Positions 20,492 to 62,800 of a stretch of 64,000 nucleotides of DNA are shown piece by piece (the first letter of the stretch is position 1; each line of letters begins with the position of its first letter). The notes beneath the pieces are model-generated. The model did no database searches. It saw only the letters and a list, made by a program, of their open reading frames with translations, and was not told the DNA's origin. The DNA is from Dudresnaya verticillata. Its lineage: Eukaryota. Where the stretch lies: positions 2,232,001-2,296,000 of the forward strand of contig OZ374561.1 in the NCBI GenBank assembly GCA_977862235.1. Direction: 5' to 3'. The position numbers and the translations under genes were made by a program.

Positions 20492-20493
20492 GA

Positions 20494-23576: not shown

Positions 23577-26500
23577 TTACGGTGAGTGACGTGTTGGATT
23601 AGCACGTCGCCTTGGCTTACCCTTAGTGGATGTCTTTTTCTTTTGCTTCCAATATCGGTAGATGAAATTCTGCGGTAACTCCTCCGCGGGCTCAAAAGTG
23701 TCTTGATCCGGAGGGTAACCATACCAGCGGACTTTGTATGTCATCCCAGTAGGTTCGTCGCGGTGACCGACAATCTTTTCGATCACATATTCCGTATCGG
23801 CTTGCAGTGGTTCCGTCGCGGAGGGAGTAGTACCTTCTGGAGGTGGCACTAATTCTCCGTAGACGGTTGATGGCGTGACAGGCGGCACTGTTAAGGGTGC
23901 CGGCTGAACCGCAACTCCGATCGGGACCTTCGTGATGCGATCAATACTTACGGGGATCAATACCCCTTCCTTTCGGATTGTAACAACATGTTCCGTTGCG
24001 GATTCCACTTCGTAAGGCCCAGTAGCTCTCGGAAGGAGTTTCTTCATTTCCTGAGCCACCTCGCCTACATCATCCGGCTTGCCTTCCAATCGGTCCCGTT
24101 CACGGCGTTCGGCAGGCCGCAAGTTATGGGGCGGCCTGTCGACGTAGACTTGATCTCCGTTACGGATTATGAGCCTAAAGCGCACCTTACGGTCAAACAG
24201 TGCCTTGGCTTTTTGCTGAGCCACTGTTTGCTTCGTGCGCGCTGTTTGGAGCGCATACCGTAAACGGCGCATGGTACTCCGCTTATGTAGCGCCGGGGTC
24301 ATACGTCCTTCCGTAACGGTTTCTTGATGCTCGACAGGAGCCCCTCGTACAACAATGTCCGATGGGTGGCGTGTCAGCACCAAATCAAATGGCGTTGTTT
24401 CCGTAACACGGTGTACCTGCATGTTGTACGCATACGTCAACGGTTGCAGGTACAGATCCCAATCGGAATGATGATCCTCAACGTAATGGCGCAAACGCTG
24501 AGCGATTGTCTTATTAAATCGCTCAGCTTGCCCATTCGTCTGCGGATGGTAGGCAGCGGTGAGCAGGTGCCTGACTCCGAGTAAGGAACACACCGCGTCG
24601 AAGAACTTAGCAGTAAACTGCGGTCCGTCTTCGGTTAGGACAAATTGGGGTGCGCCGTAGGCGTACACCCAAAAGTCCAGAAAGGCGTTAGCCACCACAA
24701 CGGCTGTTGTTGTCCGTAACGGAATACAGCGCGTCAGCTTAGAGAACCAATGGGTTATGACCAAAACGTAGACATAACCCCGTTTTGTCTTCGGAAGTGG
24801 CCCGAGAATGTCGATAGCGACAAACTCCAAAGGTCCGCTAGCGGGGAAAATTTTCATAAACCTTTGATTCCGAAAGCGGGTTCCCTTTGTCTTCACGCAG
24901 GAGCGACATGTCCAAACGGATTCAAAGACATCGTTGGCCATATGAGGCCAATAATAATCCTGTCGGAGTGTATAATACATCTTAATTCCGCCTGGGTGAC
25001 CCGACATCAGGGTGTAGTGGGATAAATACAATACCCGTCCACGGAGCTCGCTTGGCACCACCTTCTGTAGAGCGCCATCCAATTGGGACTTGCGTACCAA
25101 GAATCCGTTACGGTCATAGTCAAACTATGATCCAGGGGAGCATACCGTATCGGCTTTGAGACGACAGAAAGGGTCTCTGGCTTGCGCTTCGAGAAACTCC
25201 TCCCTGGTAATTGTCTCATCCTTAACGTCGGATTCTTGGATTACAGTAAACCGTGACGGTATTGCGTCGGGCTTATCAGGGGAGGCGGATGCGCTCCCAC
25301 TGGCGGGCTCCATGGCGCATATTACGTTATTTTCCGTAGCGGTTTCTCGCGATGTGGCCCAATCGGTTAAATAAACTCCATGCTCATATAATCCGTCGAC
25401 GGTATTTTCGGCGATAAAGCAGGGCATCTCTTCATCCAAAGGTCTATCGTCACCACCATCCGTTCGGAGTCGCGACATCCCATCGGCGAGTTGATGCTTA
25501 ATTCCAGGATGGTATTGCACCTCAAATTCAAATTCCGATAGGCGAAGCCTCCACCTGGCTAGGCGGCCAGATGAGTCTGCGAGGTTCAGGATCCACCGCA
25601 GGGCATCGTGATCCGTTCGGAGAATAAAATTATCACCGTAAAGGTAGGGTCGGAGTGTTAACATGCTCCAGACCACGGCTAAGCATTCCTTTTCGGTTGT
25701 CGTATAATTTTCTCCGCATCGGTGAGGCTTCGGCTCCAGTATCCAATGGAGGTGATTGCCATTCGGTTGTTCCTGCAGAAGGACACAGCCGACTTGGTGG
25801 TCACATGCGTCAGTGTCCAACGTATATTTATATCCGTGACGGGGTAGAGCCAATATAGGTGGAGAGATAAGGCGTCTCTTCAGTTCCTCGAAGGCTTCAT
25901 ATTCCGTATCGGATAATATTCCAAACTCAAAGGGTGAGCCCTTGCCGGTTTTCTTATTTAGCGGAGCTGAAATCCGAGCGAAGTTGGGTACAAAGCGACG
26001 ATACACGTTACACATTCCCAGGAAGGATCGCAATTCCGTTTGGTTTGTCGGCGGCTTCGCGACCTTAACGGATTGGATATTTCTATTATCCACTTCTAAT
26101 TTTCCGGGACGGATAACATGCCCCAGGTATTGTACAGACGCGTTGAAGAAGTCACACTTTGACAATTTCAACGTTACCCCAGCGGATCGTAAAAGCGTAA
26201 GGACTTCCTTCAGGTGGTGGAAATGTTCCGTAACGGTTTTTGAGTAGACAATTACATCGTCTAGGTAGACGAGGGCAAATTGTCATTTAACCGTAGAAAG
26301 GATTATATCCACTGCCCGTTGGAAGGTTGCCGGTGCATTTTTCAATCCGAATGGCATTCTCCAAAAACGGTATAAGCCAAAATGGCTAGTGAAGGTAGTT
26401 TTGTCCCTTTCCTCTTCCGGAATCTCGACTTGCCAATATCCACTATTGCAATCCAGGGTGGTAAATACAGTAGCTTCCCCAAGGGAATCTATGCACTCAT

Positions 26501-27641
26501 CCATCCTGGGCAAGGGATATGAGTCCCTAACCGTTACGGAATTGAGCCTTCTATAGTCAACACAGAACCGCATGGTGCCGTCCTTTTTTGGAACGAAAAC
26601 CACGGGGCTGGCCCACTCCGATGAGGCTGGTTCAATTACCTTAGCGGAAAGCATGCGATCGATCTCTGTCTTTTCGAGATCTCGCTGCTTATGTCCGGCA
26701 CGGTATGGGGCTTGATATACTGGCTTAGCTCCGGGATTTAACTCGATGCGGTGCTTGGCAGCTGTAATGTTGCCAAGATCGCCACTCCACATCGACTTAT
26801 ATTCCTCGAGTAGGGTTAAAATCCGTTTGCGGAGCGATGCTTCTTCTGTGCCGATCTGGACTTGATCCTTCCAATTGGTAGTATTTGTATTTTCCGTTAC
26901 GGGTTTGCTTAGTTCCTTGTCGTGACGGGAGATGCTGCTGGCCTTTTCGGAGGTAGGGTTAGAATTAAATGATTGAATAATTCCTCCCCCCTCCTTAAAT
27001 GGAGGTATACCGTCAACGGTAAAAATAGCAGAAGGGCAGCAGTAGCGAGGTCCACGACAGTAGATTTGGGCAACCGTACCGGCTTGTTAGAAAAATTAGA
27101 GACCCAGATCCGAAACGGTTTGTTAGGTACAACATCCATAATACCATTAGCCATTAACGTAAGGTGCTTAAAAGCCGGCTTAGGATGATTTTGTAGAAAG
27201 CATAACCCACCCGTGGGGTATTAACCGTTACGGTGGCTTGAGTCATAGGGGGAATAAGGGTAGATTTTGCTAAACGAATTTTCTGAGAAACCGTAGCGGT
27301 AGAAAGAGGTGAGGGCTGTAGGGTTGCAGTGGTTCCCGTCTTCGGAATTTTGGCTTGACCAACAAGGGATACCGGTGGGTAATGATGAAAAACAACTTTC
27401 CGTAACGGAGGGAGTATTGCCTTCACGTAGCGGTCGATGAAGGTAGTTCCCAAAATACAGGGAGCCGCCAAGTTCGCGACCACTAGAAAATGGACGCGAG
27501 CACGGAGCTCTCCGACACGGACGAAAAGTTGGATCTGACCAAGAGGGCGTATAGCACGATTAGACGCATCCCGTAATTGAGGACTGGCTGCTGGGCGTAT
27601 GAGTGGGAGCTATTGGCGCGGAAGGCGCCTGGCACTAATGA
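23577..27641 (-). pseudogene. pol of element A: protease C-part, dUTPase-like segment, RT, RNase H, integrase, chromodomain (stops/frameshifts)
   Basis: WASPVVFVPKKDGTMRFCVDYRRLN, MPFGLKNAPATFQR, VYLDD (~26255-26270), TDAC, LRTDH, HHCC zinc finger, AIDILGPLP, YHPQTNGQAERFN, chromodomain EYVIEKIVGHR..YKVRWYGY..DTFEP. Confidence 0.93.
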
Positions 27642-30600
27642 GCAAAATCGGAGCGTTCCGTCTTTCCTAGGTGCAAACACCACTGGCGAGGCCCAAGGCG
27701 ATTGAGAGGGCTCGATGACGCCGTGACGGAGCATGCGATCAACCTATTCCTGTGAAAACTGGCGCTGCCGCGGCCCCGCCCTGTAGGGCGGCGAGGCAAA
27801 CGGGCGCGCGCCGGGAAGGAGGTCAATATAATGCTCCGTCGTGGTGGTTTCACCTAGGGAACCATCCCACATGGCGGAGAACCGCTGAAGTAACCGTCTT
27901 ACCCGCTCGTGGTGAGCAGCGGGTAAGTGGCTAAGGTCCACGTCGTCGACAGTTAGAGTTATCTCCTGTGCGTCCCCCGGTGAGGGGGCGTCGTTGCGGG
28001 TTGACACGTGTGTCTCGTGCTTTCCACGTTAAGTAACTCGTCCGCTTCCGTCGTCGCGATGCCCAACACATCCCCCAGCTGCACGTGGCTGGGGATGACG
28101 GCAGTGGGGTGCGGCAGGGCGGTTGCGACGACTTGCCCCTTGGGGAGCAAGCGCTTCGTCGCGGAGAAGTTCGCGACGAGTATGCGGAACGGTTCGTTCG
28201 GCGTTACTTGGGCAATCCCATTTGTGGCGAGGACGCCGTGTCGCTGGTAATGGAGTCACAGGGCTGGATGCATATTGCACCCGCCCGTTCAGTGGTGACC
28301 CGCATCCACTTCTGCGACCGCTCAGGTATTACTAACTTTTCGGCGATCCGAATTTTTGGCGACAAGCGCCCCGTGATCGAGCTAGGCTCGAGATCACTTG
28401 CGGTTAACCGCTGTGCAGCTGGGAGGTGGGAGAGTGGACGACGAGTGATGGGCACTGCTGTGCCATCGTCCATCTCTACTTCCCTTGAGCGTGGGTGGAT
28501 CTCCTCCACGAACCGGTCGCAGAAGTCGCACCCAAGTATGACGGGTGCGGCGAGCTGGTCGCACACGATGAAGTCAAGCTTCACAACGCGCCGGCCCAAG
28601 CGGACCGCAAGACCCAAGGTTCCTAGGGTCTTGATCGCGTTGTTGTTCGTATCGGCGATCTTCGGGATATTACCCGTGCGCAGCGCCTCCAGTGCGGAGG
28701 GCGCCACTTCGGTTTTCCGAATGAAGTTGGGGCCTGCCCCAGTACCGAGAACACTCAACTTCCTCGTCATGGCCGCGGTGGTGCTGCCAATGTCGGCATA
28801 CACCTTATAGTTACGCTTGGCCAAGACGAAGACTCGGTCTCTCAATTATGGGGGCCGGTAGAGCGTCTGCGCTTTGGTTTTAACACCTTTGTTTGGGTGA
28901 ACCCCTGTTGACGGAGACGACCCCTTTTTTTGGCTCGGCATTCACAGTCGCCTCCCCTGTTGGGACATGGGGAGGTGACTCCCCTGCCTGGAAAGGCGGA
29001 ACCCGGCCTAGTTTTTCGGCTCGTGGTGAGCCAGCGGGGCACGGCGAAGCACACCCGGATGGCGCTCCGACTTCCGTGCTGCGGGTGGACCCGGTGATCG
29101 AGAACGCTCCCGGGCGTTGTGTTGCTGGGCCAGGTACCGGGTGTGCAGCTGCTCAGAGTAGCTGCGCGCCGGCACTTGGGCCTGCTCCTCGTCCGTGAGC
29201 GCCTCGAAGTTGATGATGATCTGACCGCGGTCACGGTATGTGAGGGTGCAATCCGTAGCGTAGTGTCCTCGACCGTACCTCGACCGTAACACGCGTGGCA
29301 GATCACCGTTGGCCCTCGCCCTGCTGGACGTTGAGCCATCGGGCGACTTGGGCGGCGGCCCTGCCAACCGGGACGAGATCGCTCGAATCCTGGAGAATGC
29401 TCCTGAAATGCGACGCGCGGCGCGGGGATGTGCCTTGGGGCCATGGCCAGCGCCGGGTCTTCTTCCGTACCGTAACCGGTATCGGTGGGGAGGTCCGTCG
29501 TCGGGAACGACGACGTGTCCGTTCCCAGTAGGTGTAAGTCACCATCATTGTTTCGGATGACCCCGTGTTCGCGCTCGCTGCGGTCCCGGAATTCAACCGA
29601 GGATTCGGCGAGCAGCGCTTGACCACGCCCTCGCGCCGTTGAAGGCGGAAGACGGGCTCTGGCCGTAGTCGGCGAAGCGGGGACTACCCCTGGTCTGCGG
29701 GATGCACCCGTTCTTGCGCGATGAGCGTCGCCCTCGTCCTGTGCAAAGTGGACGAGGTGCTCAAAGGTGAGTTCACCTCGCCGGGTCTCTTCGCGATGGC
29801 GCGCAACAAGGGAGCGGATGGTAGGGTCCAGCCCGTCGATGAACAGAGTCATCTTCTCCCAGGCCGGGTAGACGTTGCCGCAGCGATGGCACCCTTTAGA
29901 AAGGCGCATCGCAAACGCGGACTCCGTCTCACCCGGCCGTTGCGTGGTTGCACGAAGAGCGAGGGTGGCCTCACGTATGGTGCAAGGCATCGCATACGTG
30001 CACAGTAAGTAATGCACGTCCTCCGGCCACGAGTTGATTCCACCATCTGCTCGCGATGACGCGCCGCGTACACTCCGGAACTGCTGCGAAGCAGTTCCAC
30101 GGAGGACGTTCGGGAGGGCGATGAACTCCTGGGCCTCATTCATCTCCACGGTGTCGGCCTCGTCGACAAACCTCGAGAGAAAGTCAAGAATGGGCACGGG
30201 GTCATCCCCAGCAAACGCGCAGTCGCGTAAGGTCAACTCTAGCCGCTTGATTTGGTCTTTGACCTTACCAGTTTGGCGACTCGAGCGCCTTTGGGAAGTG
30301 TCGGCCAGCCGATATGTCCTGTAGGACAGTAGCCGGTCGAACAGGGGGTTCGTGGGCGTGAGCTCCTTCAGCCCCCTGTACTTCCTTCCGCCTTTGCGCT
30401 ATTGCGGCGGGCCGAGGGGCGACCCTCGGAACCGCTGTCGGATGAATCCGAGTTATGGGAGTGATCTTCAGAAGAGGACGAGGGGACGAGTTACCGTCAT
30501 CGTGACGACTACCGCGCCTGTTCCCATCGTTTGCGCGGCCACGATCACCGCGTCCACTTCGGGTCCGGTGCTCGCCTGCGCGCCGTTCTTCCGCACGCCG

Positions 30601-31674
30601 CGCCTCCGCGTCGATGATGCGGAGGTCCGTTCCGACTGGAACAACCCAGTCATACTCGCGTGCGTCGCGTTCGGCTTGGATGTACCCATTGCGATCCGGG
30701 TTCTCGACGTCCCCCGGACCGCGACCACACGAGAGTGGGCTGCCGGTCTCTCCTTCGCGTATCGGGCGATCCCGTGAAATGGGGTCAGCCCCTGCAACTC
30801 GCTCTTCCAGGAGACGGTTAACGTCTGCCCGGAGGGTGCGTAGTTCGCGGTTGACTTCATCGCGTCGGGCGTGATCGCCATGGGGACAATTCCCGGAGGC
30901 ACCGGCGTCGACGCGCGTGTTAAGCGCAGCGACTTGGCCTTCGATGTCCTGTATACGGGCGTTAACGCCATTAAACTGTTCACGGCAGGTCGCCGTGAAC
31001 TGCGCCACTGCCGCGTCTACTCACTGAGCCAGGTTGTCCACCAGGACGGCGTCCTGCGAGATGCAAATCTCGCGGACCGCCGCCCTGGGGACAGTGAGTC
31101 CTGAGGCGATGTGGACGCTGGCAGGCTCGGGATTACCCGCTGCTCCGGCCGTTGGGCCTTCCGGATACGGCGGCGGAGGCGCAGGTTCCGGCGAACGAAT
31201 CGGGCTAACCCGTGGACTGCGAGGCGCAGGAGATCCGTTAATGGATACGGTATTGGCCGGACCGTCGCAAGACGGTGCGTGGCCTTGCGGATCATACGCT
31301 GTTTGATATACAGTCGGCGCCCTTTCCACAGGGGCGCTGACTGTAGACTCCGGGGTCGATGCCGACGGCGCCAAAGGTGCCGTGGCGGTCGAAGTCGGAT
31401 CGGGATAACCCGTGTAATTAGACACAGGCGTCTGTGAAGGCGTCTGTGAAGGCGCCTGCAAGACGGGATACCCCGGGGTTGAATAAGCAGGGGCCTGCGA
31501 AGGCGCCTGCGGAGCGGGATAACCCGTAGAGATCGGTTCGGGCGCCTGAAAAGGCCCCTGGGAGACGGGAGGTCCCACGTTCGCGGTCGAACTGGCGGGA
31601 GTTCCCGTGAAGGGAATGGTTGTGGCCGGCATTGCCGGCGGAGGGTCGGACGCCATTGGCAGTCCGGCGGTCAA
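27642..31674 (-). pseudogene. gag-pro-RT(N) of element B
   Basis: Pro-rich N-terminus, capsid-like LSYRTYRL..FAGDDPVPILDFL..TQRPGETESAFAMRL..FIDGL, zinc knuckle CHACYGRGHYATDC broken by an 11-bp duplication near 29270, protease VLGTGAGPNFI..APVILGCDF, RT WASPVVFAPRKDG. Confidence 0.88.
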
Positions 31675-31993
31675 AGCGCTCGCCGTCGGTTACGCGGGAT
31701 CACCCGTTCACTGGCTGTCGGCACCAACGCGCGAGCGGCTTAAAAGCTGTCCAATCTACGGGCTTGGTCCCGGATTTGGCTGCGAGTGACCTTGAAAGCG
31801 GAGGGGGCGGCGGGGCTCCGAAGTGAGCGAGCTCGCCTTGCGGCTCGAGGTAGCTGGTCTCACCATAACGCGCGTGCGTTTTGGGAGAGCCCTTGGAAGC
31901 AAGACGAAGCGGCCGACCAATCGGAAAGGTCGGCGGGGCAGGAAGAAAAGCGGGAGAACCCGACCGGACGGAGAACGCTCCAATCGGGTGGGA

Positions 31994-32011
31994 TTCTAGG
32001 TCGGGAGACCA
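31994..32011 (-). other. Primer-binding site TGGTCTCCCGACCTAGAA (probably tRNA-Tyr)
   Basis: Starts with TGG 6 nt after the LTR end; identical 18-mer at 45610 and 48795. Confidence 0.85.
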
Positions 32012-32017
32012 TAAATG

Positions 32018-44761: not shown

Positions 44762-44765
44762 GACT

Positions 44766-45608: not shown

Positions 45609-45609
45609 C

Positions 45610-45627
45610 TGGTCTCCCGACCTAGAA
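45610..45627 (+). other. PBS TGGTCTCCCGACCTAGAA of element D
   Basis: 1 nt after the LTR-terminal CA. Confidence 0.88.
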
Positions 45628-45679
45628 GGTGGTCCCGAAGTTTCGCAATTATTTGTAATTCGTTTCTATCCGAGACACA

Positions 45680-48019
45680 ATGTCTCACGCTCCGAGTCGT
45701 CCCGATTCGCCGGTACCGAAACCCGACGACGTACCGATTCCGGAGCTCCCGTTGTTCGACTCGAACGCGAGTGACCGAGAACCGTTTTCTCACACTCGCG
45801 CTTCACGAATAACGGTACCCGATCTTCGCACAGACTCGCGTTCGCAGGCTCACGGGAGCCAGTTCGACCTTTCGTATTGTGGCATAGCTGTAAGACCAGC
45901 TGTGCCACGCACGCGAAGCTGTAAGACCAGCTGCGCCACGTGTGCACTGCTGTGCGCACGCTGTCAGCCGGTGGCGCCGAAGCCCCGCTGAACTGTAAGG
46001 AAGTGCGCAGTGGCACGCGAAGCTGTAAGACCAGCTGCGCCACGTGTGCACTACTGTGCGCACGTTGCCAGCCTGTGGCGCTGAAGCCCCGCTGAACTGT
46101 AAGGGAGTGCGCAGTGGCGCCCACGTGTGCACGCGTTCGCGTGTGACACTGAAACTCCCATGTAATTTCTACATTTATTGTTTTGTAGTGTACAGCACCG
46201 TCTAGTGTAAGCGGCGGTCGAACGCCCTGCTGTCCTGCGCGCTGTGCGCACGCACTCCGGCGCAGAGCCGTTGAGTGCGTGACACGCGCGCGCGCACTCC
46301 GGCGTCGAGCCGTTGAGTACGTGTGGACCGTTCCACCTACGCGCGCCCCCGGGTTACCGTTACCCGTACGCGTCGACGCGTGTTGGGGCGCGCCGGCGCA
46401 TCTCCCGGGTTGGTGCCGCCGCAGGCCCTGTAGTATATCTAGTAGTCGCCCCTCTCGGCTTCAGTAAACCAGGCAAGCCAGCCTACGCCTGGCTTTCCCT
46501 TTCTGCTTTGGGTTTCTTTCCCAGTCCTTCGCCCTACGGCTTCCCTCTTTCCCTAGCCGCCTAGGCTTTCCTTTTCCTTTCCCTACCGTCGGCTTCGTGC
46601 CGCCCCACTACTGGGACGCAGGGATCCGGCCGCTGCCGCCCGCGTACGGTACGCCCCGTGCGCGCTCAGGCTTCGACGCCGTTGATCCGCGACCGTCGAC
46701 GGCGCACGCGGCCGACACCACCGCTCTACCACCACAGCTACTACCCTTCGACGGGTCTGGGTGCGACTGATCGACCAGCGCAGCTAGACGTCAGTTCGAC
46801 CTGACGTCTATGCCACACGAATACGTACACTGCGTTGGAAATCGTTCCCTCGGATACCGTCGATCGACTCTTCTCGATGAAGGAAGTCTCCGGTGCAGAA
46901 CTACGTTTACTCTACGAAGAGTTCATCGACGCGCTTTCCACTGCGTACCGTATCACGCAGCTCTCAACTCGTAATACGCATAATCGAGTTCACGCAGAGT
47001 TCGACAATCTCCGCGCTGGCAAGGTCCGTAGGATCGAAGACTCACTCGAGAGTCTCCGGGATCTCGTCTCGGGAGTCAGCAACCGGTTTCTCGTGCTCGA
47101 GCGCAACGTATCCGCCCTAGTGGGCAAGGAGAGTCACTCGCCTCCCGTTCGCAGCTCGCACGCATTCTCGGAGGAACAGTTGAACGCTATTCGTGATATC
47201 GTGTCCGCCGCGTTACCGAAGGAAAAGACTCGAAGTCGCGAAGATCGTCCCGAAGCCCGTCCTGATCCCCGCAATTCGCCGCTAGTTCAACCCGTGCAAG
47301 GCCCGGGTGTCCAATCTACGTTACCGAAAAAGACGTTTCCGAATCAGTCTTCGCACCCTTTATCGCATCAGGCAAACGATGCCTCCGACAACCCCCGTAT
47401 CAACCCCGCAGTATTCCGAGCTTCCCTTCAACCACCGATGTCCCCCGGAGGACCCGTAATCGAAAATCCGTTATCGCTCGCGGGACCCGTGTCATCGTTC
47501 TGGCACTGGGGAACGCTCGAGCCGGGCGTCGAACCGATACCGACGCTCATCCCCGAATTCGCACGGGCCGTAAGCTATCGATCATATCGACTCACAAATT
47601 TGTCACCTCGGGATAATCAACACGAAGTCTTCCGAGGTAACAAGTCGAAAACCGTTTCCCGCATGCGTTCGATGATGCCGAGACTCGAGAAGTTTACGGG
47701 ACGCGACCCGATTAAGGTTCTCGCATTTCTTCGTGATATTCGACAAGCGCTGAACGGAGTCGGGCTCACCGAAGGAGCAGCAATTCGAACGATTTCGTGG
47801 TTCCTCGACGAGACCGCGCTCAAGGTTTATCAACACTATGCCTTCGGAGGCGTTCGTACTGGCAACCCGGTTTGCTGGTCCGCTATCGTGAACGTATTGC
47901 TACAACGATTTCTCACGGAAGACGTAATCGCTGACGCACACGATCGCGTGATTACCGCGAAGCAGAAGTCCGAAGAAACCGAGATGGAATTCGCGACTCG
48001 TCTAGAAGGCTAGGCAGAT
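45680..48019 (+). pseudogene. gag of element D, interrupted by a solo LTR (45878-46817) and truncated by element C
   Basis: Removing the solo LTR and one TSD copy joins FDLSY|TYTALEIVPSD in frame. Clearly homologous to gag of C (GPVSSFWHWG, FARAVSYRSYRL, FTGRDPIKVL, TAKQ..EFATRL). Confidence 0.88.
45878..46817 (+). mobile_element. Solo LTR (940 bp) related to the element C LTR, with an ~100-bp internal tandem duplication
   Basis: Perfect IR TGTGGCATAG...CTATGCCACA; TSD CGTAT/CGAAT (4 of 5). Shares blocks such as GGGATCCGGCCGCTGCC and TACGCCCCGTGCGCGCTC with 48020-48793. Confidence 0.88.
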
Positions 48020-48793
48020 TGTAGTATAGCTGTCAGCACACTATCAGCAGCGGCTGTAAGGTATGCTGGCAGCGCCGCACTGTAATGGTGCACACGATGA
48101 CGCCCGCTGGCGAGTCGTGGTTGGGCAGCGTGCCCTTAGTTTTTTCGTTGAATTAGTAGCGGTCGACCGCATTGCTGCCGGCAGCGGCCACGCGCCGTGC
48201 CGCACACGGCGCGCCCCTGTGACGCTCTCCGGCATCGAGCCGTTGAGAGGGCCGCTGCCCGTTACGCCCCGCGCGCGCCCACGGGTAACCGTTACCCGGA
48301 CGTGTCGACACGTGTATGGGCGCGCGCTCGCACACCTCCCGCGTTGGTGTTGTGGGGTGCACCTACTGTAGAAGTAGTCGTAGTGCACATAGTGTAGGGT
48401 ATTTAAGACCGTCGGCCATCGACGGCTCAGTAAACCGGGCAAGTAACAGCTCGCGCTGAGGCTTGCCCCCAGCCTTTTCGGGTTCGATCCCTTTGCCTTA
48501 CGCCAGCGGGCGGTTTCCCTTTTCCCCCTTGCCTCGCTAGGCTTTCCCCTTTCCTTTTCCTTTCCGTCGGCTTCGTGCCGCCCTTCGACAGGGACGCTGG
48601 GATCCGGCCGCTGCCTACCCGCGTACAGTACGCCCCGTGCGCGCTCCGGCATCGACGCCGTCGATCCGCACCTGCGGGGCGCACGCGCCCGACACCGCTC
48701 TACCAACCCCAACAGCTACCCATCGACGGGTCTGTGTGGCGGCTTCGGACCGGCAAGTATCAGACGTCGGATCGATCCGACGTCTATACTACA
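48020..48793 (+). repeat. 5' LTR of Gypsy element C (774 bp)
   Basis: Perfect IR TGTAGTATAG...CTATACTACA, followed by the PBS; interrupts gag of D. Confidence 0.92.
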
Positions 48794-48794: not shown

Positions 48795-48812
48795 TGGTCT
48801 CCCGACCTAGAA
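48795..48812 (+). other. PBS TGGTCTCCCGACCTAGAA of element C
   Basis: 1 nt after the LTR-terminal CA. Confidence 0.88.
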
Positions 48813-48860
48813 GTCGTCGAGACCCAAGTACTTCTCGCATCGACGCGATCGAAGTAAAGG

Positions 48861-51292
48861 ATGTCGAGTCCTTCTGACCCGGCCGCTGCCGCATCGGCCG
48901 CTGCCGGAAAAGTTGAGGACGCGACGCGTCGCACCTCAATACTGAGTACCATCGGCGTCTCAGGTACTCCTCTACACGATGTGAGGCTCGAGCGGAGGGC
49001 CGCGCTGCAAAAGGCCCTCGCCGGGAGTCTGGTCTCGGTGGCCGACCTCCAGCTGCTGTATGAGGAGACCATGGACTCGCTAGCCGAGGTGTACGACCAC
49101 CTTACAGCTTCAATAGCTGCGGCGAAGGCCGACGGCCAGCAAGACCTGGACACGCTTCGACGCGGTCCTTTGGCGTCCATCGAGGACGGAATAACCCGGT
49201 CACAGGGGCTCCTCGATGAGCTACGCCGCCGCGTTGAGTTGATAGAGTGCGCGCCGACGCGGCAACGCCAGCGGGCTACGGGCCCGTCGTCGGCGCAGCG
49301 CTCTCCGCCGCGACCGCAGTCACCAGCGGGTGCAGTTCAAGAATTGGCCACTGCCATACTTGCCGAGCAACGAGCTCGATATCGCTTTCCTTCACTACCG
49401 CCATCTCCACCGAGGAGTGCGGCGGGGTCGCACCATCCGAGTGGGGACCCCAATCCGTTCTACGCGGTCGACCCCAGGTTGCTCCAACAAGCCCTCGACG
49501 GGCAAAACACAAATGGGGGACCGACCCCCCAACAGCACGAGGGCCCCGTCTCTGCCTATTGGCATTGGGGCCCACTCATGGCAGGCATCGAGCCTTTAAC
49601 CACGTTGGTGCCAGAGTTCGCTAAGGCGATCGACTACCGCTCGTACCGTCTCGATGACGTAGATCAGCGGGACAATCAACAGCAGGTATGCAGCGGCAAT
49701 ACTGCGAAGATTGTCAGCCGCATGAAGGCCCTGATGCCCCGGCTCGACCGGTTCGACGGCAAGGAGCCTATCCGCCTGCTAGGTGTGCTTCAACAGCTAC
49801 GCCAAGCATTCAATGGCGTTGGACTATCCGAAGGCGCAGCGGCGCGTGTGGTGTCCTGGTTCCTCGATGGAACCGCGTCAAAGGTGTACGCGAGTCACCT
49901 GTCCTCTGGGGTGCGCACAACGCAGCGCGGCACCCCACCCTGCTGGGCCTCGGTGGTCAATACCCTCGTCGAGAGGTTCGTCACGGACGACGTCATCGCA
50001 GACCCCCATGACCGGCTGACCACCGCCAAGCAGAGGGACGCCGAGTCCGAGCTTGAGTTCGCTACTCGCCTCAAAGGGTATGCGGACGCCTGCGCCGGTG
50101 TGTACTCCGATGAGAACTTGACGCATCCGTTCCTTCGGGGCCTGCTGCCCACGACAAGACCCGCAGTGGCGGAGAAGGTCAGGCAGCTGCCTATGGTCGA
50201 ACAGACCAATTTTAGTACCGTTCGTCGGATTGCCCATAGCGAGGGCACAACCTACCGCGCCCGTTCGGCAAAGGCAGCGCAGCCTACGAACACCTCAGGG
50301 CGCGACAGGTCAGGTGGCAGCTCGGCAAGCGGCCGTACACTGCTCATCGAGGGCCCACCAAGCTATCCCAGCGGGGACGTTACTATCGACAACACAATGC
50401 TGGCACAATGCTGGTGGACCCTGACGCCGACGGGTTCGAACCCGTGATGGTCGCACCCGAGCTATCGACAGCCGGGCCGAGGCCGTTGAGATCCTCGACA
50501 TTACAGGACGCATCGACGCGGTCCTACCCAAGCGCATACCACCGCTCACTCCAACGCAGGAGGCGATGGCACGCGCAGTCATCCCTGATTGACAGGGATG
50601 GTACATCTGCTAGTTCTGCCGTGAGGTCGGTCACATCATGTATTCGTGCCCGTACCTCACGAAGGAACAGCAGGCATACTGCGCGTATGCGACCTGCAAC
50701 CATCGAATGGAAACGCAGCCGCATTCGCGCAATATGCTCCAACAGCTCATCGAAGGGCGCGCGCCAGCGGGCGCAAGGACAAGGAACCCCGCACGGCGCT
50801 ACGACGCGCCGCGGGGTGGGAACCGACGCTTCGACGCGAGAGGTCCCCCGCAGCGCATGGGCGCACCAAGGTACCGCGGAGAGCCACAGGGGTACCGCGG
50901 GGATCGTCGAGACCCACGCCGCGAGTACCGCCAAGGCGACGCACCACGGTTCCTGCTGCGCGATAAGCGGGTCGGCTTTGATGAGCCCGCCGGCCGTCAA
51001 CCTCAGGCATCGACCTCCGAGGGCTGACCCGCGCCGCGAACTGCTTCGAGCAGTTATGACGGTGCAGGAGCACACAGGCCTCACCACCGACGAGTGGCTT
51101 CCGCAAGCGCTCGATGCGCGACACAAGGGAGAAACAGCCAGCGGGCAGGGAAGCGATTCCCCTCTCCTTTTTGACACGCCTCCGCGATTGACGCGAGGCG
51201 CCTCAGGGGTTACGAAACACCCAATCGGAATCGAGTACGAAAGTTCGGATTCCGAGGATAATTCTGACCGGGTCGATCCGGAAAAAGAATAA
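48861..51292 (+). pseudogene. gag of element C (frameshifted), with zinc knuckle
   Basis: 528-aa ORF with capsid-like motifs. C*FCREVGHIMYSC knuckle near 50608-50650 and an RG-rich tail in other frames. Confidence 0.85.
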
Positions 51293-51306
51293 AGGCGGCG
51301 CCGCTC

Positions 51307-54300
51307 GTGCGGTCGCGCGCATCGTCTTGTCCAACACCAGACCCACCATCCCTTCCACCTTCGACGGCGTTGGGGGCAGCGAGCCCCCACGTCGGGCGCA
51401 GCGGCGCTTCGAAGGACACGAGCGACGTCCCGGTCGACGGGACGTCGTGGGCGGCGCGTACCAAACCGTCCTGGCCGCCGCGGCGTCGACGCAAGCGACA
51501 GGCCAGGCGGAAAGGGCGCAGCTCCCCAACGGCGGGGCAGGCGGTACCCGAAGCTCGACGCGAGGGTACCGGGGTTCCATGCATCGACGCAGAGCCGGCC
51601 ACTACCCCCGATGGGTACGTGTGCCTCCTGTCCTCCGAGATTTACCGAGTGTCCGTGTCCCTCGGTGCGGACCCGCGGGTTATGATATCCCACACCATCG
51701 CGGTGGACACCGGCTCCGGGTACAACCTCATCGCTCGAGGTGCCCTGCCCGCAGGCTGGGAGAAAAACACGTCAGAGATCGATTCCGCGCCACGCCTGGC
51801 AGGCGCCGACAAGACTCCGCTGAGGCTGTCCGGCGTCGTCCACCTCTTGATGAGGTTGGGGAACACGACGTTCCGCATGCCTTTCATCGTCGCCGAAACG
51901 CTCGCGGTCGACGTACTGATAGGCACGCAGTTTATCAACGCGCACGTGCGCGGAATCGACGTCGAGTTGAGAAGGCTGACGCTGAGGAAAGGAGGCTCGG
52001 TGCCCATCCTCAGCCGCAGGAACCCTAGCGAGGGAACCGGTCCGGCAACGCAGCCGAAGAACCCATCGAAGGGTTTGTCGAAGAAGCACAAGCGGGAGCT
52101 CCTCGATTGGGATCACGATACCCACACCATACGCCTCGCTAGGCAGGTGGTTGTCCCAGCCTACTCGCAGAGGCTCGTCTCGGTGACGTCGGGGGCTAGT
52201 GGGTTAATCCACACGGAGCCCAAACCCTCGTTGCAGTTCCGCCACGGCGTGAGACTGACCAACGGGGTGCACGACATCGAGTCGGGGCGACCCTTCGGGT
52301 TTATCTTGGGCAACTGGACGGACAAAGCCCGGACCCTACCGAAGGGTACCGTCATCGGATACGCAGCTCGAAACCCGCTCGCGATCTTGACACCCGATCG
52401 CGAAGTCGCGGATTCGTTTTCCAAGGTGCTCAAAATCTCCACGTTACGTGAGCACGACGACTCGAAGTCACCCCAAGAATCCGTATCCACGAAGGAAAAA
52501 CCTCTTACGAAGGGCGCCGCGACGGCAGCAGCCGAAGCCAATTCGAGTTCCCGCGATTGGAAAGAACGCGTAGACCTTCGAACATACCCGATGAAACTAT
52601 GCGAAACGAGGTCCTCGAGATGCTACGTAAGCACGAATCGATGTGGAACGGAGACCTCACGATCACAGCCACGGAGCATCGGATCGATCTACAACCCGGG
52701 ACTCGCCCTATTCGTTCGATGCCCTACCGTCAAGGGCCCGCAATACGTGAAATCGTCCGTAACGAGATCGACAGTATGCTCGAAGCCGGAGTAATCGAAT
52801 CAGCCACCTCGGAGTGGGCGTCCCCCGTAGTCCTCGCACCGAAGAAAGACGGAACACTTTTTTTTGCGTAGATTACCGAAGATTCAATACGAAGACACTA
52901 TCCGAGGCGTACCCGCTTCCCCGGATGGAAGATTGTATCGATTCACTCGGAGACGCTTCGATTTTCTCGACACTCGATTGTGACAGCGGATACTGGCAGA
53001 TTCCGGTTGCCCCCGAAGACCACGATAAGACTACGTTTACTTCGTTTCTCGGAACTTATCGTTATCTTCGTATGCCCTTCGGTTTGAAATACGCGCCCGC
53101 TACGTTTCAACGTGCACTCGATATCATTCTATCCGGAGTCCGTTGGCAGTGCTGTCTCGTCTACCTCGATGACGTGATCGTTTTCTCCGCGAATCTTCGA
53201 GAACACATCGCGCATCTCGATCAAGTCCTCACGCTACTTCGTAATTCCGGGGTTTCCCTCAAAATAAAGAAGTGCTTCCTTTTCCGCAAGCGAGTCGACT
53301 ATCTCGGACACGTAATTTCCCCGGGGAAGCTTAGTATGGCTGAGAAGAGCTCCGAGGCATTCCGATACGCGAAGTTCCCGAAGACCCTCACGCAAGTCCG
53401 TTCGTTCCTCGGCGCGTGTAACGTATACCGAAGATTCGTGAAAGACTTCGCGAAAATTGCGCGCCCGTTGACGAACATGACACGAAAAGACGCGGATCCT
53501 GACTACGAGAATCCCACGGAGGATCAGGTTACCGAATTCGAAACGTTCAAACGGAAGCTGGTGTCACCGCCGATACCCCGGTTACTGCAACTCGGGAAAC
53601 GCAACATCATCGATACGGACGCGTCTGCGTATCGACTCGGGTGCGCGTTGCTACAGGAGCAAGATAAAGAAGAGTTCCAACCGGTGGGCTACTGGTCTTA
53701 TTCGTTAAACGATGCCGAGAAGAACTACTCCGCAACCGAGCGCGAATGCTACGCAGCCGTATGGGCGGTTACTTCGTTAGTCCGTATATCGAAGGGACCC
53801 GGTTCACCGTACGTACGGACCACGACGCACTCCGCTGGCTTCTTTCTCTCACTGATTCGTCCGGGCGACTCACGCGATGGCGGCTGCGCTTAGCCGAATT
53901 CGACTTCGAAATCGTGCATCGCCCCGGTCGCGTCCATCAGATTCCCGTTGCCCTCTCACGATTGCTACTTCCGCATCGCGAACACCCCGCAATCGACGAC
54001 GAAGTGCCTCCGTTTGACTCGGATCACAACGCCGCAAAGCACGAAGCAAGCTTCCCAAACGACGTCGCGAAAACTATCGAAAACGCAAGAGACCCGGTTC
54101 TCATCACTACGAGATCTCTCAAACTTCAAACGAACGTTACCGCGATTCGCCACGACTCCACGCAGACGACCACGCCCGCAACACGGGTAATTCGAGGCGG
54201 CACTACGCAAAGACCCACGGAGGTCCCGAAAAATAACGCAGGTCACCATCCGCAAAGCCGCGAAGGCTGCACCCACGCACAAGACGAAGCACTACGTGAG

Positions 54301-55995
54301 GAATACGCAGGACAAAACGAGGTCTACGATGACTGCGATTTATGGGACGATATCGATGACGAGGATCCCTTTGACCTTTATCGAATCGACCCTAACGAAG
54401 AACCGCGTAACCTAACCGATGTCAAGCCCGTAGACATACCCGCGCCGATTACTGTATCCGAGATCCTCGAGGGACAGCGTATTGATTCATTCTGCCAAAC
54501 GGTGCAAGCACGACAATCGAAAACAAAGGATAGTGTCTTTCACGAAGATGGAGACGGTCTCCTGCGACGAACGTATCCGACAATTCCGAACTTAACGCAG
54601 ATCTTATTGCCCGAAACGCTCCGACCCCGGTTACTTACGCTAGCGCACCATTCGTTACTCGCTGGCCACCCGGGGCAGAATCGAATGTTCTACTCATCTC
54701 GTGAAACGTATTACTGGTCTTACATGTCTGCCGATATCGCATCTACGGTCCGAAGTTGCAAGCACTGCGCACGAAATCGGATTCGCTTACGAAGGAACCT
54801 TCATCGCTTGAAGCTCTCCCCAGCTACGCGCCCACTCGAATCGGTCGCGATTGACATCTTAGGCCCGTTTGCCACGTACGAAAGCCGGACGCAAGTTCAT
54901 CCTCGTGATTATGGATCAATTTACGAAGTGACCCAGGTGGCCACACTACGAGTAATAACCGCGTATCACGTGGCCGTTGCCTTTTGCGAAGTTTGGATAT
55001 TCAAGTATGGACCGCCAGCCTCGGTGCTCTCGGATAACGGGAAACAGTTTACTTCGAAGTTCTTTCAGGGCGTCTGACGCTTACTCGGGTTATCGAACGA
55101 GTTCACCTCCGCATATCATCCGCAAACGAATGGACAAACCGAACGATATAACCGGACTATCCTCGCGATGCTTCGTAACTACGTGAACGACCACCAAATC
55201 GATTGGGTCCGCTACGTCTCCGCGTTAACGTCTTCGTACAATTGCCACGTTCATCGGTCTACGAAGACAACTCCGTTCAATCTCGTTTTATCGCGACCGC
55301 CGCCCGAATTCACCGTGAAGCATCGCTCCCGTAAGCACCGACCGAAACCTACGGAGGACATTCGAAACGATTTCATTAAACGACTCGATGTCGCAATCAC
55401 CTCAGCAAGAGCTTCGTTACAACGTGTGCAAAACCGATACAAGCGCGACTTCGACAAAGGCATCCGACGGACGAAGAGTCGCGTCAAACCCGGATACTAC
55501 GTGTTCCTCGATACCCACGATGGGAAAACGAAACTTCCGAAGTTGAAATCCCCCGCGGAGGGGCCGTACAAAGTGCTCTTCAACGATACGCGTACACTCA
55601 TAATCGATCGCAAGGGCCTCGTTGAACGCGTCTCCGCGGACCGCTGCATCTACGCGCCACCACCTACGAATTCGCAAGCATCGATTACGCGATCCGAAGA
55701 GATAGCATAAAAGGTCAACGAAGGTCCCGAGTACGTGGTAGATCGTATCCTCGATCACTCCACCGACGAGGACGGGAAATTCGTGTTTCGTATCAAGTGG
55801 GACGGCTACGCGACACCTACGCGGGAACCTCGTACGCACGTGCCCGAAGAACTCGTTTCACGCTACTTGGCAAGGCTTCGAAGCCAAGCGGACCCGCGTG
55901 ATCCCGTGCTACTCGCCCACGAATGGCTCTCCGGCTGGGACCCCGAGTGGTTCCGTGGCCCCGACTTCGTGATCCGCAACCCGCAGCCCGAATAA
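51307..55995 (+). pseudogene. Gypsy pol (protease, dUTPase-like segment, RT, RNase H, integrase, chromodomain); C-type to ~52.4 kb, probably D-type thereafter
   Basis: VDTGSGYNLI, WASPVVLAPKKDG, LVYLDDVIVFS, DTDAS, VRTDH, AIDILGP, SDNGKQF, YHPQTNGQTERYN, chromodomain EYVVDRILDH..FRIKWDGY; multiple frameshifts. Confidence 0.93.
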
Positions 55996-57327: not shown

Positions 57328-58971
57328 TTACGAGCGCCCATACGGGTTCGCGGAGTCGTAAGGCGGGTTATCACGAGGATCGTTTCCGTTTTCATATCGA
57401 GTCACGCGAAGGAAGTTGGGCGCATACGGATCCGATGTCTGCGATTGTCCGTCGCAACCGCTGGGTCCGAAGCCCGAAGGGCCTCCGGAGCCAGACCCGT
57501 AACGCGGAGCATCGTAACTCGGGTAACCGTAATCTTCGCGCCGACGCTTCCCGCTCAACTTGAGGTCCCGAATACGATGACGAAGGTCCGCTATCTCCGC
57601 ATCCCGATCACGAAGCTGCTTACGAAGGAGACTCAACTCCGTGACCGCGCGAAGGAAACTTCCGCCGAGATCGTCCAGCAGTTGCCGAAGAGTCCCATCG
57701 GGGGAGATGCCCGCTTCGCGACACGCGTCGCTCACGGAGTCGAGACTGCGAATATCCGTAGGACAGCACATCTCGAGACTCGCGATCGAAGACTCCGAAG
57801 CGCTCGGCACCAACGCGACAGCCCCGGTGCCAAGAGATGACCCCGGAGTCAGCAACGACGAAGGAACCGGAGCTACAGAACGAGGAACGCGCGGCAACGG
57901 ACCAACCTCGCCTCCGATGGCACGAACCGCGGCACTCGGATGCGAAAACGGATCAACTCGCGGACCACGCCCTCCTCGTGAAGGACGGTTATGGCACCAA
58001 TCGAACCAGGCCCTGGAGCCCACGTCGTGTCCGACTACTTGGGACCACTGTCCCGTCGGGAAATCGCGACGAGTCGACTGGAGCTCCCTCCGATCCGAAT
58101 CCTCGATGGCAATCGCGAGTATCTTCGTGAACTGCATCGTGCAATCCGAGCCTCGGAGCGAAAGATCCGGATACCCGCCATCCTCGGAGAACGACTTCGA
58201 CCAACGATCACGAACGAAACTACGCAACGAAGCATCGAGCACCCACACGTATTGACGCTGCGTGACATCCGAAATCAACGCGCGACCAAGCTCGAAGCGA
58301 TATTCGGAATCCCGGAAACGCACGAAGCACTTCTTCGTAGGTTCCGCAAACAGGTCGACCACGAGCCCGAAATAACGAATCACCCTCGGAGGTGGCACGA
58401 CTAAGCCCGCGGGGGCCCGAATACACGAAGCATCGAGCCAGAACGAACTCGCAAACATGCTCAGAGGCACGCGGTCATCGAGACGCTAATTCGTATCCAC
58501 GCGATCAGGCATCGAGCCCGCGCCACGGAATAGCGCCCAGTCTCTACCACCGATGTGCACTCCGAGGATGCGCGAAATCGAGTCTACGTGACGCCATACG
58601 TTTCCCGCGGCGGACTCGAACTCCGGATAATCACGAAAGCGAGTAACCGCAACCAACGGAGAATCCACGGAGATACCCGCACCCGGTGCCAGGAGCACGT
58701 GCGCACACGCATCTACGTAAGCAACCTCGTCGACCGTGGTCACGTAGGAGACATCGCACGGAAGACCCATCGGAGTCGTATACACGGGGCCACGGGGCCA
58801 GAATACGTGAAAGACTCCGGCTCCATTATCATCATGACCCTCGCAAAGTGCACGAAAACGAGCGAGATCTGGACGAACACGGCCATCGTAGGCAGCAACC
58901 TCTTCGTGAGTAACTCCGGAGATCGCGAACTCGTCCCACGCGAAGTACAGCTGCGCAGAAGGAAGCCTCGG
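57328..58971 (-). pseudogene. Antisense accessory ORF downstream of pol (family D); one in-frame stop at 58486-58488; 5'-truncated by an LTR
   Basis: ORFs 58486-59007 and 57328-58470 are in the same frame. Shares motifs with the element A antisense ORF and ends with a coiled coil and KRRR. Confidence 0.72.
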
Positions 58972-59882
58972 TGTAGTGCCAGGGGGGTCCCCCATTTTCG
59001 CTTTCAAGCGGGTTGATATGCAGCGTCTACCGACGGACGACCGCCAACGGTGCGCTCAACCCGCCCGCGGCGCAAACACGTCACCGACGCATGCCGCTGG
59101 CCACTTGGGCCAGAACGGCTCGCTTGGCGTGCAGACCGCACGCCTGAACCCGGGCACTGTACGGCGCCACGCGTACGCGCATGGCGCAGAGGCGGGAACG
59201 TTCGCTGTAAGCGTGGCCCGAATCCGGATCCAATCGGGATCCCACATCGGGATCAGACATCGGGATTAAGGGGTGTAAGGCACGCGCCTGTAAGCCTGGT
59301 GCATCCGCACGGCTGGCCCGAATCCGGACTGGATCGCGATTGGTGCGGATCGAGATCGAACGTGCCATGGGGCGCATGCGGCTGTAAGGAAGTAATCCAC
59401 GTGTAGGTGTAAGGACTCGAACGGGTAAGCTACGCGTGATCTGTCAGGAGCGCGGCTGCATGACGGACGGATCTGTCAGACGCGCCTCGGGACAACACGT
59501 GTCCCGAGTTCCCGCGTGACGCGTACACCCGCGTCGCCGCCGCTAGGTAATTCTATACTTAGTTGATCCGTCTCAGACGTCATAGTAAACCCCGGGAAGC
59601 CGGCGTTGGTCCAGACTTCCCCGTTCAGCACGTGCGTACCCTACCGCTGCCTACGGCTAAGCGTCTACCTCCCGTGCTTCCACGTCTCTACCCGTCTTCG
59701 ATGTGTTTCCTTTTTGTTTCTTCTGTTCTTCCTTTCCGCCTCGGGCGTTTACAGTCCGCCCAAGGCGAGTCAACTGCTCTACCACAAGTCGCCCAAGGCG
59801 AGGCTACTCACCGCCAAGGGCGTCGCTACCCACCGAGCACCGAACTGCTCGGCGGTGTTCCGTCAACGACGTTCGCACTACG
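58972..59882 (+). repeat. LTR of family F (homolog of 43861-44761); no matching TSD and no PBS
   Basis: Starts TGTAGTGC and ends GCACTAC(G). Region ~59470-59880 is closely similar to ~44346-44761. Confidence 0.85.
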
Positions 59883-62800
59883 GAAGACGGTAACGTTCTC
59901 GCTTGATTCGCAGAGATGCTCGACGATAATGTCGGAGGTATCTTCAGTCGTCTACAGACGTTGGTGGAAGATCGGGACGGTGCCCTTCAAGGACTCCGTT
60001 CCGACCTCGACCGTCTGATGATGAACCCCAACCATGGAGTAGATGCTCAGCAGCCAAAGACATTGACGGTCCATTCCCAGTCGGAACTGAGTTGACGCGA
60101 ACGCTTTCAACGATTAGCAACCCGCTTAGAGCGACTGGAAACCGCCAAATGGCGCCAAGGGCCGCCGTCTGATGACGATAGTTCCGAAGAAGACCGTCGC
60201 CGACGTAAAGATCGTAAGAGACGGGGCAAGAATCGCCGCACGTCGCGTCATGGACGGAAGAAGAACCGTCACCGACTAGGGGACTCATCCTCATCCTCTT
60301 CGGACACGTCTAGTGAAGACGGGTCAACAGGCTCTTCGTCAGACGATGACGACCACGTGGCTCACGGCAGTGCCATGCGACCCCGCGGAAAGCGATACAG
60401 GGGACTGAAGGAGCTAAGCCCCTCCAATCCTCTCTTCGACCAGTTGCTATCGTACCGCACATACCGTCTCCAATATGTGGGACAGAAGCGCTCTGGACGC
60501 GAAACCAGGAAGGTCAAAGACCATATCAAGCGACTCGAGTTAAAAATGAAGGACGCTGCCTTCAACGGCAGCGACCCCGTCATGGTTCTCGAATTTTTAA
60601 CGCGGTTCGCGGATGAAGCGGACACGCTAGAGATGAGAGAAGCACAAGCGTTCGTCGCGCTGCCGTACTTCTTAGGAGGTACGGCAGCCACGCAATTCCG
60701 CTCCGTCAAATCGACGTCCTCTCGCCACCGCGGCGGCGTATCATCGTACCAGGAGGCGGTGCACTACCTCCTCCGCACGTACGCCACGCCTTCGGCGATT
60801 CGAGACGCTGTCCTCGCCCTGGGGTCGACTAGTCAGAAGCAGGGCGAAGACGAGACGACTTACGGCATGAGACTCGCCGGCGCATGTATTCGTTGCGGTA
60901 ACGTTTATCCTGAATGGGAAAAGATGACACTGTACATCGATGGGTTAGACCCGACGATCAGGTCCTTAGTGGCCCGCTTCCGCGAAGAAGCGCAGAGGGC
61001 GGAGTTATCTTTTGAACGTTTAGTCCACTTCGCGCAAGATGAAGGTGAGACGCAACGCGCAAGACACGGCAGGACCGGCTCGACGTCAGTAAGACGGGAT
61101 ATAATAGCCCCGGCCGAAGCCGCTCGCGCATTGCACCCCGCCATTGGCGACAACCGAACGGTTCTACGTCAACATACGAGGGGCACGAAGCCTGCCGCAC
61201 GCGCTATATAGCGGAGTCTTCCGTTGAGTTCCGTGATGTCACCTGTCATGCGGACGATATGGAAACACACGCCGATGGCGATCTCTATTTGGCCGATGAG
61301 CAAACGTCAGTGCCAACGTCAGCGTTACCGACGGACAGCTACGTCGAAGACGAGGACACAGGGGCAATAAATCCTACACTCGCCTTTGGGCGATCCGTTG
61401 TTCCTGCGCCACGCGTCCCGTATTCGGAGTATGCTCCCCACGTCCATCGGGCGAGGCCAGGTTGGCAAGATAGGAGTCCGCTCCGTCAAGACGCTCGCAG
61501 ACAGTTGATCTGTCATCAGTATTATGCCCGTGGCCGCATCGCACCGGACTGCTTCCTCCGCATGAGCGAGTATATGAAAGCGATCGCCAACTACGAAGGC
61601 TTAACAGACGCCGAGATGGCGGGGGTCCCCGCTGATGCGTACACTCGGTACAAAGAACGCGTTGCGCGCGAAGCAGCACGCCGTGCAGCACGACCACCGT
61701 CGCCACGGGGCGGACCTATGCCGCATGCAGCAGAACGTCATCTGACGGTGATCAATCGCTAGACAGCGCCGCTACAACCGCCGCAGGCGAAAAACTAATG
61801 AGGGTACCAACTCCTGACACGGGGTGCCGCACCAAGTAGAGAGGCTTCGGCCTCGGGTGCTGACACGGAAGGAGGACCCGAACGTAGTTAACAAATACGC
61901 TGATGGGCGGGTAGATTCGTCACAGACGTCCTTGAAGCGCCCCTGGCGTAGGTACCAGCCCCCACAAGCCCGGGGACAGTTATTCGTAATGGCCAAAAGG
62001 AACTACAAAGTATACGCCGACCTGGGCGTAACTGTAGGTACCTTGGCACGTAAACATACTGTCCTCGACACGGGGGCTGGTCCGAATTTCATTCGCATTG
62101 ACGACATTCCGCTAGAAGCGCGACCACGGATCGTATCCAAGAGTCTCCCCGTCATATCAGACATTAGCAACAAGGCGATTCAGACCCGGGGTACTATCGA
62201 CTTAGTCGTACGTCTCGGACGAAGGGTTGTCAAGTTGGAGTTGATCGTCTGTGAACGGCTCGCTGCGCCGGTCATACTTGGTTGCGACTTTTGCGACCGC
62301 TTTGTCGAAGCGATTTATCCGCGGAGTCGCGAGATTGAGTTGGATGACGGGACCCGTGTCCCTTTAACGCACCGCCTGCTGCGCTGGCCCCCGTCGTACC
62401 CCCCGTTTCCAACGGAACAAGAGTACGGCACGGCTGAAGGGCGAACGTCGCCCAAGATACGCGTTGCGGAACGGACGATCATCCCGCCGCAGGCGCAAAA
62501 GTGGATCTCGGTGACGACCGAGCGAGCAGGGGTCATTACCATCCAACCGTTTGGAACGTTATATGATCGGCAAGCTTTGGCCGTTACTAACAGGGTCGCT
62601 CAAGTAGAGCAGAGTGTTCCGGATTCTCGTCGCCAACTTCTCCCCGCGCCCGCAAGCGCTCGTTAAAGGACAAGCCGTCGCTACCGCGTTGCCACATCCC
62701 ACAGCAGTGTTCCCCAGTCACATAAGTCTGGCCGATGGCCTAGGTATCACCGAGGAACAGGCAGTGGAGGAGGAGGCGAATCAGGATTTCCGTTTTCAAA

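Follow-up and report, generated by a model that had tools for sequence, protein, structure and literature searches.

Antisense open reading frames downstream of pol in two chromodomain retrotransposons as putative members of one unnamed protein family

Antisense open reading frames (ORFs) have been reviewed in the retrotransposons Grande, RIRE2, Retand, PvRetro13 and Boty, where their origin and function are described as unknown (PMC7264820). The DNA analysed here, a stretch of 64,000 nucleotides referred to as the window, contains two elements, A and D, each with a long ORF that is antisense to gag-pol, lies downstream of pol and is oriented tail-to-tail with it. This arrangement of pol and ORF occurs twice, on opposite strands and 35 kb apart. 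The initial annotation had proposed that the two ORFs share ordered motifs and thereby define an unrecognised domain family. The locus raises the question of whether two proteins with such low similarity belong to one family, and what a protein of this kind might do for the element that carries it. The features of the two ORFs, which take the names of their elements, are as follows:

57328..58995, minus strand: antisense ORF D, from the ATG at 58995 to the TAA at 57328, 555 codons
57991..58968, minus strand: conserved core of D, approximately residues 10-335
57556..57642, minus strand: predicted coiled coil of D, residues 452-480, by heptad score
57538..57549, minus strand: KRRR basic cluster of D at residue 483, candidate nuclear localisation signal
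20625..23168, plus strand: antisense ORF A, from the ATG at 20625 to the TAG at 23168, 847 aa
21267-22265, plus strand: core of A, approximately residues 215-547
23138..23473, plus strand: probable C-terminal part of A, in another frame
23273-23356, plus strand: helical segment in the out-of-frame tail of A
23450-23464, plus strand: terminal KRRRR of the out-of-frame tail of A, about 30 residues beyond the helix

Both frames are coding. Composition alone predicts 16.7 stops over the 555 codons of D, where one is found (P ~8e-7), and 27.5 over the 847 codons of A, where there is none (P ~2e-11). The single in-frame stop of D, a TAG at codon 170 (58486-58488), is positioned between motifs 1 and 2 of the earlier comparison. 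It represents a lesion within one gene, because a related protein, P0003, aligns straight through it (30% identity over 267 aa, E 2e-23). After its KRRR cluster, D continues for about 70 more residues as a Tyr/Gly/Pro-rich tail, and about 100 bp separate the out-of-frame tail of A from the integrase stop of element A. The copies of A and D in the window are both broken, and the full protein is likely no longer made from either. A purine run is also present on the element strand (20606), 19 bp from the antisense ATG of A.

The six motif pairs (12 motifs) on which the family was originally based are all present in the sequence and colinear. As indicators of homology they fared unevenly: in an alignment of the 33-sequence family, four of the six are in register, including RIFRSEW/RFRDSEY, while PPWWD/SFWLD is shifted by one position and DGMHVGA/LGVHIGG is spurious, its members remaining unaligned. 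The last pair, GYSWDEDR and WFDWCHNR, is ambiguous, as profile comparison by HHalign instead pairs FLGYS of A with VVGHD of D. Direct comparison of A with D remains at chance level throughout. BLASTP yields best E values of 0.27 and 0.26, and a Smith-Waterman local alignment of the cores scores 39 against a shuffle mean of 35, a value equalled or exceeded by 116 of 500 shuffles. Twelve pairwise settings of matrices and gap costs, each with 500 full shuffles, give z from -0.2 to 1.3, and the MAFFT alignment has 73 identities, a number that between 15 and 23 of 100 shuffles reach, depending on which of three modes is used. Ordered short motifs of such quality are no proof of homology on their own.

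Relatives were collected by profile. Word-indexed protein searches with D alone and with A alone returned no matches, and a mixed profile of both cores (A+D) recovered P0003 first. A profile search of 1.84 billion representatives at E up to 0.001 then gave 31 proteins, which all-against-all BLASTP divided into 22 A-like sequences, 8 D-like sequences and one repeat artefact. The latter, the tandem-repeat protein P0014, joins neither subfamily and was dropped. With P0003 added to the D-like set, the family comprises 31 relatives, of which 22 are A-like and 9 D-like, or 33 members including A and D. No BLASTP link connects the A-like and D-like sets at E 1e-3, and in a tree of 17 long rows the 5 D-like sequences stand apart from the 12 A-like ones with support of 100/100. 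Because this collection relied on the mixed A+D profile, it may be enriched in sequences similar to both proteins.

Among the 21 clusters examined, the only named relatives come from Gracilariopsis chorda and Gracilaria changii, both red algae of the Gracilariales, which makes a red alga the likely host of elements A and D. The G. chorda cluster (P0018, P0042-P0044) names five loci whose proteins are 96-97% identical, a sign of mobility, and the G. changii relative, P0015, derives from a Trinity assembly, which points to expression of a relative. The hypothetical G. chorda genes BWQ96_10536, _06091, _07814, _04855 and _04265 are members of the family, and these five are likely transposon-borne. 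The ORF is no isolated capture: it recurs across copies and families, in two subfamilies and five near-identical G. chorda loci, with the relatives known as proteins. Scans of metagenomes, viral contigs and prokaryote genomes for related loci at the DNA level confirmed none.

The evidence that joins the two proteins comes from profiles. When the A-like and D-like groups were aligned separately and then compared by HHalign, they matched with a probability of 96.5% (pair E 8.6e-10, 267 columns), and omission of both window proteins left 96.4%. Trimmed alignments score 75.2, compared with 19.8 and 15.9 for reversed profiles, a maximum of 20.5 in 100 column shuffles and a maximum of 54.5 in 100 shuffles of 15-column blocks. 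Since the real score lies above all block shuffles, the order of the sequence matters. The mixed search query was the reason for further bias tests on this match, in which long members only gave 82% and low-ranked matches only 87%. By parts, residues 1-125 of D alone reach 86% and residues 126-250 alone 89%; the C-terminal third of the core gives a probability of 0.2% and has no support on its own. In profile-to-sequence comparison, the D profile scores 5.1 bits on A (1 of 1000 shuffles higher) and the A profile 3.1 bits on D (2 of 1000 higher); the best cross match reaches 20.4 bits and would fail at library scale. An additional observation concerns a D-x-x-R-F motif (A 230-234), common to both subfamilies, with the arginine present in 8/8 and 9/9 rows. 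As the search query took in A only from residue 240 onwards, this motif lay outside its A part.

Homology of the N-terminal two thirds of the core between A and D is therefore nearly certain, and by sequence comparison A and D are distant members of one unnamed family with two deep subfamilies. The proposal of one domain family is borne out by the profile-profile match of the cores (HHalign, 96.5%), to which the motifs alone contribute no evidence. The domain is also unrecognised, as had been suggested, in that the core has no match in Pfam, PHROGs, NCBIfam or PDB sequence families. Fast evolution, another part of the proposal, agrees with an identity of 41/263 (16%) between the cores of A and D, compared with higher values across gag-pol: BLASTP identities between the two elements are 29% for gag, 27% for protease, 45-68% for RT and 35-37% for integrase. 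The two subfamilies likely split together with the retrotransposon lineages that carry them.

The predicted fold of the core is compact and mainly helical, with short strands, over about 335 residues. An AlphaFold2 model of the A core built from all 33 rows has a pLDDT of 86.8 and a pTM of 0.89; it is not independent proof of homology, because D-like rows were included in its alignment, and a single-sequence AlphaFold prediction of the D core reaches a pLDDT of 31. In the D-like rows, proline occupies 5 of 439 positions (1.1%) corresponding to predicted helix interiors of A, compared with 58 of 567 (10.2%) in loops. A Foldseek comparison of the A-core model with PDB and BFVD at E up to 0.001 gave 0 matches, and a VIA comparison of the whole model with 48,161 chains gave a best Z of 3.3 (rmsd 4.7 over 105 residues), under the level reported as typical of unrelated models. 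A missing match to this predicted model in PDB and BFVD does not prove a new fold. By sequence, no Pfam family is common to more than 1 of the 33 members, and the one match that a PDB search with the core retrieved was RPB5 (E 0.08 over 48 positions). An ESM Atlas search with the A core (best 0.88) produced primase-like leads, which were flagged as probably wrong and dropped.

Several polar residues (R233, D277, E286, Y289 and E440 in A numbering) are common to both subfamilies; in the C-D motif the cysteine varies, occurring in 6/12 and 8/10 rows. Net charge of the core ranges from -13 to +12 across 16 rows and is about neutral, a composition that gives no evident sign of nucleic-acid binding. 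After the core, a coiled-coil-like segment, identified by a heptad score without a null, and a tail of low complexity are present in D and in all four of its long D-like relatives (4/4). The statement that both proteins end in a coiled coil followed by KRRR holds literally for D; in A the corresponding segment is out of frame and past the stop of the ORF. Endings of the form K[KR]x[KR] occur in 5 of 9 long A-like relatives and likewise in the out-of-frame tail of A, and hint at a nuclear location. None of the four long D-like relatives (0/4) has a basic cluster after the coiled coil, and the KRRR of D is not conserved in place, because their basic clusters are N-terminal or absent. No transmembrane segment is found in A or D, the best 19-residue hydropathy values being 1.6 and 1.5. 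In the predicted layout, the mostly helical core (about 335 residues) is joined by a low-complexity linker to a coiled coil, and a basic cluster follows.

The surroundings of the two ORFs contain the following features:

23577..32011, minus strand: element A gag-pol, with RT, RNase H, integrase and chromodomain, through to the primer-binding site (Pfam)
48020..48793, plus strand: 5' LTR of element D, with a 10-bp terminal inverted repeat
48795..48811, plus strand: primer-binding site of element D, 17 nt, identical at 32011 (minus strand, element A) and at 45610 (plus strand)
48858..55995, plus strand: element D gag-pol in several frames, with gag, protease, RT, RNase H, integrase and chromodomain (Pfam, BLASTP)
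55711-55995, plus strand: chromodomain of element D, after a stop
59270..59884, plus strand: LTR-like repeat, 275 bp beyond the ATG of D, 88% like 44258-44763 and unlike the 5' LTR of D
44258-48793: nested LTR stack, with an LTR-like repeat (44258-44763), an LTR with inverted ends (44766-45608) and a primer site (45610)
~45880-46818: further LTR of the stack, 82% like that of D
46805-48013: gag fragment of the stack, cut by the 5' LTR of D

The gag-pol of element A reads over 23577-31689 on the minus strand. With the chromodomain PF00385 at the integrase C terminus (E 3e-11 in A, E 6e-7 in D), both elements are classified by sequence as chromodomain-bearing Ty3/gypsy retrotransposons. The complement of their primer-binding site is one that we take to resemble the 3' end of tRNA-Tyr. 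The 5' LTR of element D has no matching partner within the 64-kb window, and the flanks of element A (19790-20590 and 32015-32560) are LTR-like with similar-looking ends, their alignment being not above chance. A 3' LTR matching the 5' LTR is found in the window for neither element, and non-matching LTR-like repeats follow both ORFs. Nested insertion, which could have displaced the 3' LTRs, is the simplest reading of these non-matching repeats. With matching 3' LTRs missing from the window, the ORFs are assigned to elements A and D by adjacency, by the arrangement seen twice and by the five loci of the G. chorda cluster. The spacer between the chromodomain of D and the stop of its ORF measures 1.3 kb.

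The stack at 44258-48793 suggests that chromodomain elements insert into one another. The LTR-like repeat at 59270..59884 is followed by the gag-pol of a further element, E, which starts at 60096 and is nearer to A than to D (gag identity 63% vs 27%); an antisense ORF of the A-like type is to be expected at its 3' end, which lies beyond the window. With up to 3 mismatches allowed, no copy of the 17-nt primer-binding site follows the LTR-like repeats of E (59884-60096) or of element C (46818-46900), for which decay or another priming mode is possible. Other mobile sequences in the window include an element at 17285-19461 that reads as Tc1/mariner-like, having transposase-like frames and terminal inverted repeats (about 210 bp, 95%), and fragments of a MULE transposase (PF10551, 33078-33830, minus strand) and of DDE_Tnp_4 (PF13359, 42988-44427, minus strand). 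Host genes, including those for hemerythrin-CHY-RING and TPM-RING proteins, are interspersed with these transposons and show the window to be eukaryotic.

The function of the family can be approached by analogy. A protein encoded antisense and downstream of pol may act as a nuclear accessory factor that aids the expression of its own element or its escape from silencing, a reading held with about even confidence. A promoter near the 3' end of the element would give rise to a separate antisense mRNA, the basic cluster would direct nuclear import of the protein, the coiled coil would support oligomerisation, and the core may bind to chromatin, to the DNA of the element or to a silencing factor of the host; the fold search gave no functional lead for the core. 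A somewhat doubtful but credible variant keeps the same family and position and places the action of the protein on the particle or its RNA, where binding of Gag or genomic RNA would control copy number, packaging or the entry of the integration complex into the nucleus. An import adaptor is equally compatible with a coiled coil and a basic cluster, a neutral core suits protein binding, and import of the pre-integration complex has been named as a possible role of antisense ORFs (PMC7264820). However, an antisense gene with its own mRNA would not be tied to gag-pol stoichiometry. An env-like membrane protein conferring infectivity is barely conceivable: the position after pol is indeed that of env, but the ORF is antisense, transmembrane segments are absent from both A and D, and 0 viral structures matched at E up to 0.001.

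Other explanations question the origin of the ORF or the relationship itself. That the ORF is part of a separate mobile unit, or of a neighbouring nested element beside pol, is improbable; the lack of a matching 3' LTR, the repeat of another family after the ORF of D, the nested character of the region and the 1.3-kb spacer would fit such an origin, but the same tail-to-tail arrangement occurs twice, the tail of A lies only ~100 bp from the integrase stop, and the divergence of the ORFs (16%) extends the gradient seen in gag and protease (27-29%) of the same two elements. That the core was captured from the host, as an enzyme or as a ligand-binding fold such as a strongly altered globin or phycobiliprotein-like one, is quite improbable. 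It would draw on several of the top VIA rows, which cover model residues ~73-250 at Z 2.3-3.3, and on the polar residues R233, D277, E286, Y289 and E440 shared by both subfamilies. These rows, ApcE, phycoerythrin and cytoglobin among them, are presumably globin-like folds. Even the best VIA match (Z 3.3, rmsd 4.7 over 105 residues) is below the value typical of unrelated models, the C-D cysteine varies, and no Pfam family occurs in more than 1/33 members. Finally, the view that A and D are unrelated and that their motif order arose by chance is largely refuted and very improbable. Pairwise scores at chance, the lack of an inter-group BLASTP link at E 1e-3 and a possible mixed-query bias all speak for it, but it is contradicted by the HHalign match with its controls and by a D-x-x-R-F motif that is common to both groups though it lay outside the query.

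The nuclear accessory factor reading has its closest parallels in the plant Tat/Retand aORF-3R or eORF-3'R (Grande gene23, RIRE2, Retand TRP28 with PF04195), which are likewise long, fast-evolving antisense ORFs after pol in Ty3/gypsy elements. In maize Grande, the antisense GENE23 is found in the nucleus and has a promoter of its own (PMC7264820), and TRP28 is given for 97% of Retand clusters in the available portion of PMC11963269. Some of these ORFs are reported to encode coiled-coil (Smc-like) segments or to have products that localise to the nucleus (PMC7264820; available portion of PMC11963269). Their carriers differ in being non-chromoviruses of flowering plants, whereas the hosts described here bear a chromodomain and the named relatives are red-algal. 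Neither PF04195 nor PF10536 (plant mobile domain) is detected in any of the 33 members at E up to 1, nor in full-length A, D, P0003 or P0005. Botrytis Boty/BcGypsy1 brtn is similar as an additional antisense ORF of a non-plant Ty3/gypsy element (PMC7264820), and an additional ORF is also noted in the accessible part of 10.1101/2021.04.13.439636. It differs in that no named fungal protein occurs among the 21 clusters examined.

Functional analogy, and only that, links the family to VANC of the VANDAL DNA transposons, a fast-evolving accessory protein that combines a folded domain with a coiled coil. For the anti-silencing factor VANC21, dimerisation through a coiled coil has been predicted (both points from the accessible text of PMC13547354). 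VANC differs in belonging to DNA transposons of dicots and in its MAIN-related fold, and there is no sequence match to it and no VANC structure among the fold-search rows shown. A broader proposal, that chromoviruses of red algae have kept, from the time when their two main lineages diverged, an ancient antisense gene for a protein with a new fold and sequence-specific anti-silencing activity, a counterpart of VANC, is speculative and rather doubtful. Like chromoviruses in general, A and D have the gag-PR-RT-RH-IN order, PF00385 and a primer-binding site after the 5' LTR. The survey in PMC6317226, in its available portion, covers green plants, unlike the hosts considered here; there, extra ORFs are found mainly in non-chromovirus (OTA) and SIRE lineages, and 314 eORF groups of green-plant Ty3/gypsy elements, defined by BLASTP at E 1e-10, are taken as independent acquisitions.

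What appears new here is the unnamed domain family; the antisense ORF after pol was already known in Ty3/gypsy elements. The paper titles and abstract openings searched name no red-algal antisense ORF family, though one may be described in Repbase, in the paper on the Chondrus genome, in subscription journals or in supplements. As two groups kept separate by BLASTP form one family, group counts based on BLASTP may hide ancient, vertically kept genes. The hypothetical proteins of G. chorda (PXF39757.1 and kin) are flagged as likely transposon genes. The function of the family can be tested, given a confident model, a short set of residues common to both subfamilies and natural members that are intact.
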